The notes under the pieces were generated by a model. The model made no database searches. It saw only the letters and a program-made list of their open reading frames with translations, and was not told the DNA's origin. From Escherichia phage alpha3, in the sequence record NC_001330.1: 6,087 nt of DNA; one strand, 5' to 3'. Positions 2,957 through 6,087 of this stretch are shown here, piece after piece. The position numbers and the translations under genes are program-made. Numbering within the stretch: position 1 is the first letter of the stretch; each line of letters starts with the position of its first letter.

Positions 2957-3031
2957 ATGAAGAAAGCACGTCGTTCTCCTAGTCGTCGTAAAGGTGCTCG
3001 CCTCTGGTATGTAGGCGGTTCTCAGTTTTAA
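2957..3031 (+). CDS. J: DNA-binding/packaging protein J, 24 aa, highly basic
   Basis: MKKARRSPSRRKGARLWYVGGSQF, starting one base after the D stop (TGAtATG). This is the short J form typical of G4/alpha3-type phages. Not in the ORF track because of its size. Confidence 0.85.
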   Translation: MKKARRSPSRRKGARLWYVGGSQF

Positions 3032-3035
3032 TTAT

Positions 3036-3054
3036 GGGCCCTTCGGGGCCTTTT
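3036..3054 (+). terminator. J-F intergenic hairpin with UUCG tetraloop plus T-run (TJ-like terminator / RNA stability element)
   Basis: GGCCC (3037-3041), TTCG loop, GGGCC (3046-3050), with a flanking G-U pair 3036/3051, then TTTT (3051-3054). Confidence 0.5.
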
Positions 3055-3066
3055 AAGGAAATTCAA

Positions 3067-4362
3067 ATGTCTAATGTACAAACTTCCGCTGAACGTGAAA
3101 TTGTTGACCTCTCTCATCTTGCCTTTGACTGTGGCATGCTTGGTCGTCTGAAGACTGTTTCATGGACTCCTGTTATCGCTGGCGATTCCTTTGAGCTTGA
3201 TGCTGTTGGTGCTTTGCGTCTTTCCCCTCTGCGTCGTGGTTTAGCTATTGATTCTAAGGTTGATTTTTTCACCTTCTACATTCCGCATCGTCATGTTTAT
3301 GGCGACCAGTGGATTCAGTTTATGCGTGATGGTGTTAATGCTCAGCCTCTGCCTTCTGTTACTTGCAATCGCTATCCGGACCATGCTGGTTATGTAGGTA
3401 CTATTGTTCCTGCAAATAACCGTATTCCTAAGTTTTTGCATCAGAGCTATCTGAACATTTACAATAACTATTTCCGTGCCCCGTGGATGCCTGAGCGTAC
3501 CGAGGCCAACCCGTCTAATCTTAATGAGGATGATGCTCGTTATCGCTTCCGTTGCTGCCACCTTAAAAATATTTGGTCTGCTCCGCTGCCTCCGGAAACC
3601 AAATTGGCTGAAGAAATGGGTATTGAAAGCAATTCCATTGATATTATGGGTTTGCAAGCCGCTTATGCGCAGCTTCACACTGAGCAGGAGCGTACTTACT
3701 TTATGCAGCGTTACCGTGATGTTATCTCCAGCTTTGGCGGTTCAACCTCCTATGATGCCGATAACCGACCGTTGCTTGTTATGCACACCGACTTCTGGGC
3801 TTCCGGTTACGACGTTGACGGTACCGACCAATCTTCCCTTGGACAATTCTCTGGTCGAGTCCAGCAGACGTTTAAACACTCAGTGCCGCGATTCTTCGTG
3901 CCTGAGCATGGTGTCATGATGACTTTGGCTCTGATTCGCTTCCCGCCTATCAGTCCGTTGGAGCACCATTATCTTGCTGGTAAGTCTCAGTTAACCTATA
4001 CCGACCTTGCTGGCGACCCGGCTCTGATTGGTAACTTGCCTCCTCGCGAGATTAGTTATCGAGATCTGTTCCGTGATGGTCGTTCTGGTATTAAGATTAA
4101 AGTTGCCGAGTCTATTTGGTATCGTACTCATCCTGATTACGTTAACTTTAAGTATCATGATTTGCATGGATTCCCGTTCCTTGATGATGCGCCTGGTACA
4201 TCTACTGGTGATAATCTTCAGGAAGCTATCCTTGTTCGTCATCAGGACTATGATGCTTGCTTCCAGTCTCAGCAGTTGCTACAGTGGAACAAACAGGCTC
4301 GCTATAACGTTAGTGTTTATCGCCATATGCCTACTGTACGTGATTCCATTATGACCTCTTAA
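3067..4362 (+). CDS. F: Major capsid protein F, 431 aa
   Basis: Extensive similarity to phiX174 F (MSN.QT.AER...DLSHL.F..G..GRL.T...TPVIAGDSFE.DAVGALRLSPLRRGLAIDS.VD.FTFY.PHRHVYG...QLLQWN...RDSIMTS). AAGGA (3055-3059) with a 7-nt spacer. The upstream in-frame ATG 3034 used by the track lies inside the hairpin and is not the start. Confidence 0.95.
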   Translation: MSNVQTSAEREIVDLSHLAFDCGMLGRLKTVSWTPVIAGDSFELDAVGALRLSPLRRGLAIDSKVDFFTFYIPHRHVYGDQWIQFMRDGVNAQPLPSVTCNRYPDHAGYVGTIVPANNRIPKFLHQSYLNIYNNYFRAPWMPERTEANPSNLNEDDARYRFRCCHLKNIWSAPLPPETKLAEEMGIESNSIDIMGLQAAYAQLHTEQERTYFMQRYRDVISSFGGSTSYDADNRPLLVMHTDFWASGYDVDGTDQSSLGQFSGRVQQTFKHSVPRFFVPEHGVMMTLALIRFPPISPLEHHYLAGKSQLTYTDLAGDPALIGNLPPREISYRDLFRDGRSGIKIKVAESIWYRTHPDYVNFKYHDLHGFPFLDDAPGTSTGDNLQEAILVRHQDYDACFQSQQLLQWNKQARYNVSVYRHMPTVRDSIMTS

Positions 4363-4367
4363 TTCAT

Positions 4368-4383
4368 GGGCCTTCGGGCCTTT
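4368..4383 (+). terminator. F-G intergenic hairpin with UUCG tetraloop plus T-run (TF-like)
   Basis: GGCC (4369-4372), TTCG loop, GGCC (4377-4380), then TTT. Near-duplicate of the J-F module. Confidence 0.45.
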
Positions 4384-4395
4384 AAGGATTTATCT

Positions 4396-4959
4396 ATGTA
4401 TCAGAATTTTGTCACTAAGCATGATACTGCCATTCAGACTTCCCGTTTTTCTGTTACTGGCAATGTTATTCCTGCTGCTCCTACTGGTAATATTCCTGTC
4501 ATCAATGGTGGTAGTATTACCGCTGAGCGTGCTGTTGTTAATCTTTACGCTAATATGAATGTTAGCACTTCTTCTGATGGTTCTTTCATTGTTGCTATGA
4601 AGGTTGATACTTCTCCGACTGACCCTAATTGTGTCATCTCTGCTGGTGTTAACCTTAGTTTTGCTGGTACCTCATACCCGATTGTTGGTATTGTTCGTTT
4701 TGAGTCTGCTTCTGAACAGCCTACTTCTATTGCTGGTAGTGAAGTTGAGCATTACCCAATTGAAATGTCTGTTGGTTCTGGTGGTGTTTGTTCTGCTCGC
4801 GATTGTGCTACTGTTGATATTCATCCTCGTACTTCTGGTAATAATGTTTTTGTTGGTGTGATTTGTTCTAGCGCTAAATGGACCTCCGGTCGTGTGATTG
4901 GTACCATCGCTACGACTCAGGTTATTCATGAATACCAAGTCCTTCAGCCGCTTAAATAA
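4396..4959 (+). CDS. G: Major spike protein G, 187 aa
   Basis: The N-terminus [11 protein letters not shown] and the C-terminus (RFESAS...[12 protein letters not shown]...VLQPLK) are similar to phiX174/G4 G (MFQTFISRHN...RFESS...PRTPGNNVYVG...CLQPLK). AAGGA (4384-4388) with a 7-nt spacer. The track's upstream ATG 4366 lies in the hairpin. Confidence 0.92.
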
Positions 4960-4984
4960 AAGGCTGCCGCACTCCCGGTTAGAT

Positions 4985-5069
4985 GCCTGCCCAGTGTAGG
5001 GCAGACCGAGCCGTACGGAGATACCCGATAAACTAGGAACGTGGAAGGCGTTAGCCGCCTTCCCTCCTG
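4985..5069 (+). other. Putative complementary (-) strand origin: primase (DnaG) recognition region in the G-H spacer
   Basis: The 135-nt G-H spacer contains a 6-bp hairpin CTGCCC/GGGCAG (4987-5004, loop AGTGTA), the palindrome CCGTACGG (5011-5018), and an 8-bp hairpin GGAAGGCG/CGCCTTCC (5043-5063, loop TTAGC) followed 4 nt later by CTG (5067-5069). G4-type origins are hairpins with a 5'-CTG-3' primer start on their 3' side. Confidence 0.45.
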
Positions 5070-5094
5070 CTAAGCCCAAAAAGGAGTTACAGCG

Positions 5095-6087
5095 ATGTTA
5101 GGTGCCGTTGTTGGTGGCATTGCCTCAGCCTTAGCTAGTGGTGCCGCTTCGAAATTATTTGGAGGCTCTCAGCGTGGAGTTTCTGTTATGCAGCAAGGTG
5201 CCGAGTCTGCCGGATTGACTAACGGCGGCGGCGCCATTTCTATGGATAATGACCAAGGTATTCAGTCTGCTATTCAAGGCTCGAATGTTCCTCCTGCTGG
5301 TCAGCTTCCTGAGTCTCAGAACTCTGGTGTTATGGCTGATGCTGGTAACATGCTTCGTAATGCTGGAAAGTCTTTGCTTGACGGAACTATTCAGGCTGGT
5401 TCTGATAAAGTTAAGCAAGCACTTATTGATAAGTTGATTGGAGGTAATGATGCTAAAGACCGAGGAAAGGCAACCCGCGATTACTTGGCTGCGGCCTTCC
5501 CTGAGCTCAACCCATGGGAACGTGCTGGAGCTGGTGCTTCCACTGCCGGGTTAGAATCTTCTGCTCAGAATCAGCAGAAAGAGATGCTGAAGATGCAATT
5601 GGATAATCAGAAAGATATTGCAAAAATGCAGATGGATAACAATTTGCAGATTGCTGGTATTCAGTCTGCCACTTCTCGTCAAAATACGAAGGATTCTGTT
5701 TATGCCCAGAATGAGATGCTTCAGTATAATCAACGTGAGTCGCAGGCACGCGTTGCGTCTATCCTCGCCAACACTGACCTCACGACTAAACAGGCTACCC
5801 ATGAAATCATGAGGATGGCCCTTACCCGTGCTCAGGAGACTGGTCAGCATTTGACTAACTCTCAGATTATGGCTTTGGAGAAAAAGGTCTATGCAGAAAT
5901 TGGAAAAATTCATCAAGATACTCAAAACTCTCGCTATGGTAGCTCTCAAGTTACTGCCGCTGCGAAAGATGTTACGAATATGATTACCGATGCCGCTTCA
6001 GGTGCTTCTGATTGGGTTTCTCAGCAGTGGAATTCGTTCTTTAAGGATGGTAAGTCCAACGGTATTTCCCTTAATACCAGAAAATAA
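5095..6087 (+). CDS. H: Minor spike / DNA pilot protein H, 330 aa
   Basis: Glycine-rich hydrophobic N-terminus MLGAVVGGIASALASGAASKLFGG (phiX174 H: MFGAIAGGIASALAGGAMSKLFGG), a conserved central block (RDYLAAAFPEL, IAGIQSATSRQNTKD, VYAQNEML) and the C-terminus KDGKSNGISLNTRK. AAGGAG (5081-5086) with an 8-nt spacer. The stop is the last codon of the window. Confidence 0.95.
   Translation: MLGAVVGGIASALASGAASKLFGGSQRGVSVMQQGAESAGLTNGGGAISMDNDQGIQSAIQGSNVPPAGQLPESQNSGVMADAGNMLRNAGKSLLDGTIQAGSDKVKQALIDKLIGGNDAKDRGKATRDYLAAAFPELNPWERAGAGASTAGLESSAQNQQKEMLKMQLDNQKDIAKMQMDNNLQIAGIQSATSRQNTKDSVYAQNEMLQYNQRESQARVASILANTDLTTKQATHEIMRMALTRAQETGQHLTNSQIMALEKKVYAEIGKIHQDTQNSRYGSSQVTAAAKDVTNMITDAASGASDWVSQQWNSFFKDGKSNGISLNTRK

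Follow-up and report, generated by a model that had tools for sequence, protein, structure and literature searches.

What does the 135-nt spacer between genes G and H of phage alpha3 do, and can its role be read from the sequence and from its relatives? The window, that is, the whole stretch of DNA that was analysed, is the 6087-base record NC_001330.1, and the spacer occupies 4960-5094 of its + (viral) strand, between the G stop codon TAA at 4957-4959 and the H start codon ATG at 5095. A sequence-only reading had proposed that it holds an origin of the G4 type, the textbook minimal system of bacterial priming in which DnaG primase acts with SSB on folded single-stranded DNA. We propose with high confidence that complementary (minus)-strand synthesis in alpha3 starts from an origin at positions 4960-5077 of the + strand, which belongs to the G4 oric family and is primed by primase only. 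This identification is correct and not new, as an alpha3 origin between G and H is already known, and the alpha3 copy was among the first origins to be sequenced.

The sequence and gene map on which this rests are consistent between records. The window aligns with DQ085810.2 over its full length at 99.9% identity and matches M25640.1, an earlier record of the alpha3 H gene, at 100%; its mismatches to DQ085810.2 fall at six positions (192, 335, 338, 2449, 3544 and 4378), two of which, 192 and 4378, are single-base deletions in the window, and none lies within 4960-5094. Gene coordinates were transferred from existing annotation and adjusted for these two indels, placing gene A at 759-2243, J at 2957-3031, F at 3067-4362, G at 4396-4959 and H at 5095-6087. 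The spacer had been described as 135 nt devoid of any open reading frame, which holds for its length and for the + strand, where no frame spans it, but not for the - strand, where a frame at 4672-5079 overlaps it; this frame is unlikely to be coding because relatives differ by single-base indels in the spacer. The ribosome-binding site of gene H, AAGGAG at 5081-5086 on the + strand (194-199 of M25640.1, mapped by offset), is part of the spacer and lies outside the origin core.

All of the features first noticed in the spacer are present where they had been placed. These are a perfect 8-bp hairpin, GGAAGGCG/CGCCTTCC, at 5043-5050/5056-5063 with a 5-nt loop (hairpin I), a perfect 6-bp hairpin with a 6-nt loop, whose arms CTGCCC and GGGCAG occupy 4987-4992 and 4999-5004, the palindromic stretch CCGTACGG (5011-5018), and a CTG at 5067-5069 that begins at the fourth base past the larger hairpin. 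By themselves, the hairpins are only weakly above chance. Folded as single-stranded DNA the spacer reaches -23.1 kcal/mol (z = -1.88), with 7 of 200 shuffles equally stable, while a perfect hairpin of at least 8 bp appears in 35% of whole-genome dinucleotide shuffles and the 12 perfect 6-bp hairpins observed are at chance level (9.0 +/- 3.7 in dinucleotide shuffles). Hairpin I is the only perfect hairpin of at least 8 bp in the window and lies inside its second most stable 40-nt segment; the most stable one in the genome (-11.3 kcal/mol, GGTGCCG...CGGCGCC) is at 5197-5236, inside the glycine-rich part of gene H. Fold z-scores and hairpin counts are thus insufficient as sole support, and the decisive support is homology and conservation.

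We aligned the equivalent spacers from 21 phages, of which 14 belong to the genus Alphatrevirus and 7 to Gequatrovirus. Comparison with the published G4 origin, which the sequence-only reading had named as a check, revealed similarity over the whole length: the alpha3 G-H spacer (135 nt) and the G4 F-G spacer (136 nt) are identical in 82% of columns when aligned as a pair, with the same viral-strand polarity. The G4 reference record annotates an 'RNA primer of replication' at 3970-3997, the primer thus starting at nucleotide 3997, and an 'origin of compl. strand synthesis' at 3998; the G4 CTG at 3996-3998 falls on the alpha3 CTG at 5067-5069, and the G4 hairpin GGACGGCG/CGCCGTCC on alpha3 GGAAGGCG/CGCCTTCC. 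Across the origin core (4960-5077, + strand) alpha3 and G4 are about 76% identical, compared with 54-70% for their genes, and a family profile searched with nhmmer scores E=1e-44 for alpha3 and 3e-36 for G4, finding one copy of the element in each. The core consists of two blocks homologous to G4 oric, 4960-5027 and 5043-5077, and in each of them the alpha3 and G4 groups share 81% identity. They are separated by a variable segment of 15 nt (5028-5042, + strand) in which identity between the groups drops to 35% and length is kept to within 1 nt.

Within the 14 alphatreviruses, mean pairwise identity is 91% for the spacer and 75-77% for the adjoining 300 nt of genes G and H, and 74% of spacer columns are invariant compared with 22-28% of third codon positions in the flanks. 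A non-coding spacer that is more constrained than the genes adjacent to it is a cis-acting element. The distribution of this constraint also bears on whether the spacer is simply a long leader of gene H, serving ribosome binding and translational control, with hairpins that arose by chance. Such a leader would fit the presence of AAGGAG in the spacer and the weak single-sequence hairpin statistics, but the end nearest the ribosome-binding site is the least conserved part (40% identity between the groups), both conserved blocks are situated further upstream, and the same module in G4 precedes another gene, G. We therefore give this explanation next to no credence.

The variable segment coincides in position with a middle hairpin of G4, CGGAGA/TCTCCG, for which alpha3 has no counterpart. 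As this hairpin is also missing in the G4-like phages NC6, ID52 and ID8, it does not define the family. Every other testable defining feature of the G4 oric family is found in alpha3. Spacer-wide homology, a compensatory change in hairpin I and the alignment of the two CTG triplets together support the proposed reading of the G-H spacer as a G4-type complementary-strand origin.

The position of the module relative to gene G differs between the two genera. It lies between G and H in 14/14 aligned Alphatrevirus records, and likewise in the metagenomic alpha3-like contigs that keep the context of the region, whereas in 7/7 Gequatrovirus genomes it lies between F and G, so that gene G is on its other side. 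This agrees with the location that the sequence-only reading had given for the alpha3/St-1 group, G-H rather than F-G as in G4. In both genera the module fills all 134-136 nt between the TAA of the preceding gene and the ATG of the following one. A literature search for a statement of the 'between G and H' location turned up the mini-hairpin review PMC13037366 alone. The negative-strand origins of St-1 and phiK share the G-H position with alpha3, are 94-95% identical to it across the spacer, and have the same hairpin I, the same GCGTTAGC loop and the same CTG; they differ from alpha3 by point changes only, among them a C-G pair at 4965:5003 (T-A in alpha3) that leaves a T.G wobble in their proximal 6-bp hairpin.

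The complementary-strand signal of phiX174, a primosome assembly site for PriA (protein n'), is located in the F-G spacer; there primase and SSB do not suffice, and a primosome of several proteins is required. It has the same role in the life cycle, to start the complementary strand on incoming viral single-stranded DNA, and it too adjoins gene G; a site of this type in alpha3, dependent on the full primosome, would also be in keeping with a structured intergenic region in a microvirus. There is no sequence relationship between the two: the phiX174 F-G spacer gave neither a blastn-short nor a profile match to alpha3, a comparison to be read in light of primosome assembly sites being weakly defined by sequence, and phiX174 contains no match to the origin profile. 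Together with the strong homology to an origin that uses primase only, this makes a phiX174-type site in alpha3 extremely improbable.

Hairpin I (5043-5063, + strand), with its 8-bp stem and TTAGC loop, stands directly 5' of the predicted start site on the viral strand. Its bases pair with P=0.99 in the predicted fold, and its stem is perfect in 21/21 aligned phages, where the one variable pair, 5046:5060, undergoes a compensatory exchange from A-T, as in alpha3, to C-G, as in G4; the + strand is also the mRNA sense, so that covariation alone cannot separate a role in DNA from one in RNA. The apex of the hairpin carries a mini-hairpin motif, GCGTTAGC at 5048-5055 (+ strand), which fits the GCGNNAGC/GCGNAGC consensus; the G4 hairpin has a GCGNNAGC apex as well. 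Among relatives the loop varies only at the N positions of GCGNNAGC or GCGNAGC, which are filled by TT, CA, TA, AA, T or A. A 2026 review describes this motif for the G4, St-1 and alpha3 origins (PMC13037366) and gives the hairpin I loop of alpha3/St-1 as GCGTTAGC, exactly the letters at 5048-5055 of the window; as the source for the alpha3/St-1 hairpin it cites Sims, Capon and Dressler 1979 (its ref. 36). The initiation triplet for primase, 5'-CTG-3' at 5067-5069 on the + strand, is invariant in 28/28 sequences, a set made up of the 21 aligned phages and seven further sequences with plasmid relatives among them, and the flanking CCCT.CTGC.AAGCC, identical in G4, is likewise invariant as sequence.

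The same hairpins might instead act at the RNA level, by terminating transcription of the G message or stabilising its 3' end, in which case the likeness to G4 would reflect that function, comparable to the terminators of phiX174 after J, F, G and H. The + strand being the mRNA sense, the GC-rich hairpin I lying 84 nt past the G stop and the presence of terminator-like hairpins in other alpha3 spacers (J-F, F-G and after H) would all suit this explanation. Neither hairpin of the G-H spacer is followed by a T run, however, the sequence after hairpin I being CTCCTGCTAAG, and a terminator and promoter scan found nothing in 4960-5094, and a Rho-independent terminator was dropped on these two grounds. 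Furthermore, the homologous G4 sequence is annotated as primer template and origin, the invariance of CTG and of CCCT.CTGC.AAGCC is not something that a terminator requires, and plasmid copies of the module lie on the strand opposite all annotated genes. An RNA-level role as the explanation of the module is, in our judgement, very unlikely. An Rfam covariance-model scan of the whole window returned no relevant family and, in the spacer, no match at E<=1, as would be expected for an element that acts as DNA.

The J-F and F-G spacers had been held to contain no structure comparable to that of the G-H spacer, which requires amendment. Both carry a GC-rich hairpin with a TTCG loop followed by a T run, a structure that is terminator-like and not origin-like. 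The two spacers (J-F, 3032-3066; F-G, 4363-4395) are near-copies of one another, with a GGGCC(C)-TTCG-GGGCC hairpin, the T run, and AAGGA just before the next gene. Each resembles a Rho-independent terminator that has a UUCG tetraloop and is joined directly to the ribosome-binding site of the gene that follows. The consensus terminator scan missed them because their T run is only 3-4 long.

Upstream of hairpin I, covariation points to a different pairing from the one first noticed. The 6-bp CTGCCC/GGGCAG hairpin (4987-5004, + strand), which we term proximal, had been put forward as part of the origin; its 3' arm is shared with a distal helix in which CTGCC at 4964-4968 pairs with GGCAG at 5000-5004, and the two compete. 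The distal helix, flanked by GG at 4962-4963 and CC at 5006-5007, would close an upstream stem-loop at 4962-5007 of the + strand. It shows compensatory pairs at 4965:5003 (T-A/C-G) and 4966:5002 (G-C/A-T), the A-T variant of the latter occurring in different sub-lineages (Lilleven, NC28 and one plasmid), and is Watson-Crick in 27/28 sequences. The 5' arm of the proximal hairpin, CTGCCC, is nearly invariant, and changes of the 3' arm in relatives give T.G or G.T wobbles only, never a compensatory change; plasmid pRes13 has another sequence in place of the proximal arm and retains the distal helix alone. As the tolerated T.G and G.T wobbles would be mismatches on the minus strand, the constraint acts on the + strand. 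We conclude from this pattern of substitution that the conserved upstream stem is the distal helix of the G4 type, with the proximal hairpin as a competing alternative, and that covariation favours for GGGCAG the partner at 4964-4968, not (or not only) the proximal arm. G4 likewise forms its upstream stem from a distal GC-rich helix, of 7 bp compared with 5 bp in alpha3, which is its minimum-energy fold (P=0.99), whereas the predicted fold of alpha3 favours the perfect proximal hairpin (-23.1 vs -20.0 kcal/mol, P=0.93). An inward extension of the distal stem (4969-4973/4993-4997) found no support outside the alpha3 group.

The palindrome at 5011-5018 (+ strand) was rejected as a functional feature since it is broken in several relatives, its counterparts being CCATACGG in phiK, CCTTACGG in ID62, CCGTACAG in WA45, CC-TACGG in the G4 group and CCGAACAG in the plasmids. 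Judged from these counterparts it is probably incidental. The overlapping TACGGAGATAC is conserved as sequence.

A model for the use of the alpha3 origin may be built on the G4 system. In G4, SSB coats the viral single-stranded DNA while secondary structure leaves about 30 nt SSB-free, primase and SSB alone suffice, and synthesis starts at the T of a CTG located 3' of the stem-loops, yielding a primer of up to 28 nt that is extended by Pol III (PMC6783573). By analogy, host SSB would coat the incoming single-stranded circle of alpha3, on which the stable hairpins of the origin would remain folded and so keep a short landing site clear of SSB. DnaG of E. coli, acting without the primosome (PriA/DnaB/DnaC), would recognise this fold together with the 5'-CTG-3' just 3' of hairpin I, and the RNA primer would start opposite T5068 and copy back through hairpin I. 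The primer is expected to begin with pppA opposite T5068, with AGGAGGGAAGG as the RNA 5' end; transferring the G4 annotation by alignment places its predicted template at 5041-5068, with the primer itself in the - sense and reading 5'-AGGAGGGAAGGCGGCUAACGCCUUCCAC-3' if it is 28 nt long as in G4. Pol III holoenzyme would then extend it round the circle, producing the replicative form, which is double-stranded. Judging by its title, the 1979 paper of Sims et al. that PMC13037366 cites reported priming by DnaG and SSB for St-1, phiK and alpha3. We infer the priming event in alpha3 and its start nucleotide from the biochemistry of G4 together with this title and the way in which the paper has been used; what we computed here is the homology to the G4 origin, the conservation, the covariation of two stems, the invariance of CTG, the single copy and the G-H position. 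Counting against the model are the missing middle hairpin of G4, the preference of alpha3's own upstream sequence for the proximal fold rather than the distal one of the G4 type, the unexceptional single-sequence statistics of the hairpins and the double use of the + strand as DNA and mRNA sense.

Searches of plasmid collections and of E. coli genomes also turned up full-length homologues of the module, carried by small E. coli plasmids of two families. The copies lie on the - strand of CP057337.1 (9.7 kb; 1066-1201, 83% identity) and NZ_CP062859.1 (8.0 kb; 7008-7143, 74%), both small non-mobilizable E. coli plasmids, and of the 8.8-kb contig JAEWGQ010000432.1 (L149; 2691-2813, about 73%). The last is labelled as part of an Actinomycetes MAG and is 87-90% identical to NZ_CP062859.1, which suggests that it is probably mis-binned. 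The plasmid copies sit in gene-free DNA, and all three share with alpha3 the distal helix, the mini-hairpin motif (as GCGAAGC or GCGCTAGC) and the CTG region. They differ from alpha3 in that the stem of hairpin I is irregular or, in L149, lost altogether, leaving the GCGCTAGC mini-hairpin, which is separated from the CTG that follows by 4 nt rather than 11. By sequence they are candidate ssi signals, and we take the primase-dependent ssi signals described on plasmids to be of the G4 type. As a class, such signals are already known from plasmids (Nomura et al. 1991, as cited in PMC6854812). One of the plasmids with a copy, pRHB29-C22_2, has genes for a resolvase, a small terminase like that of Sf6 and an AlpA-like HTH protein, a combination that recalls phage satellites.

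Wider scans added few relatives. A scan of viral contigs with TCCCTNCTGCNAAGCC gave 120 stretches, nearly all of them chance matches, and a profile search left the known phages and one alpha3-like contig; a genome-contig scan gave 39 stretches, a single plasmid relative among 38 chance matches from GC-rich genomes, and a metagenome scan gave five, of which three were alpha3-like contigs and the other two matched by chance within coding sequence. One could speculate, and we do so with considerable doubt, that the upstream half of the origin is bistable and that the module is a primase-recruiting cassette swapped horizontally between microviruses and small enterobacterial plasmids encoding AlpA, TerS and resolvase. 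If this were the case, the choice made by GGGCAG at 4999-5004 between 4964-4968 (distal) and 4987-4992 (proximal) might set the phasing of SSB or the access of primase.

For alpha3 itself the analysis adds nothing new, and its interest lies in confirming that a genuine cis-acting element of DNA can be recovered from sequence letters alone and in the comparison of relatives, whose additions are modest. The comparison defines the constrained parts of the module (two blocks, the CTG, the mini-hairpin motif and the distal stem), shows that it keeps its stop-to-start boundaries whether it precedes gene G, as in one genus, or follows it, as in the other, and identifies close copies on cryptic plasmids.

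Several further observations concern other parts of the window. The single-base deletion at 4378 sits in the GC hairpin of the F-G spacer and is perhaps an old sequencing compression; it brings an ATG at 4366 in frame with G, giving a 197-aa open reading frame that is absent from the newer record, in which the annotated G start corresponds to 4396 in the window. Directly after the H stop, a 14-pair hairpin followed by TTTTTT (26-61) resembles a terminator and is probably the terminator after H. The non-coding region between H and A (1-758) measures 758 nt, one eighth of the genome, and is far longer than that of phiX174 or G4. Within it, 34 nt upstream of gene A, lies a promoter-like site close to the sigma-70 consensus (696-725, TTGACA-18 nt-TATATT, 11/12 matches), and a GC hairpin at 726-750 comes next.
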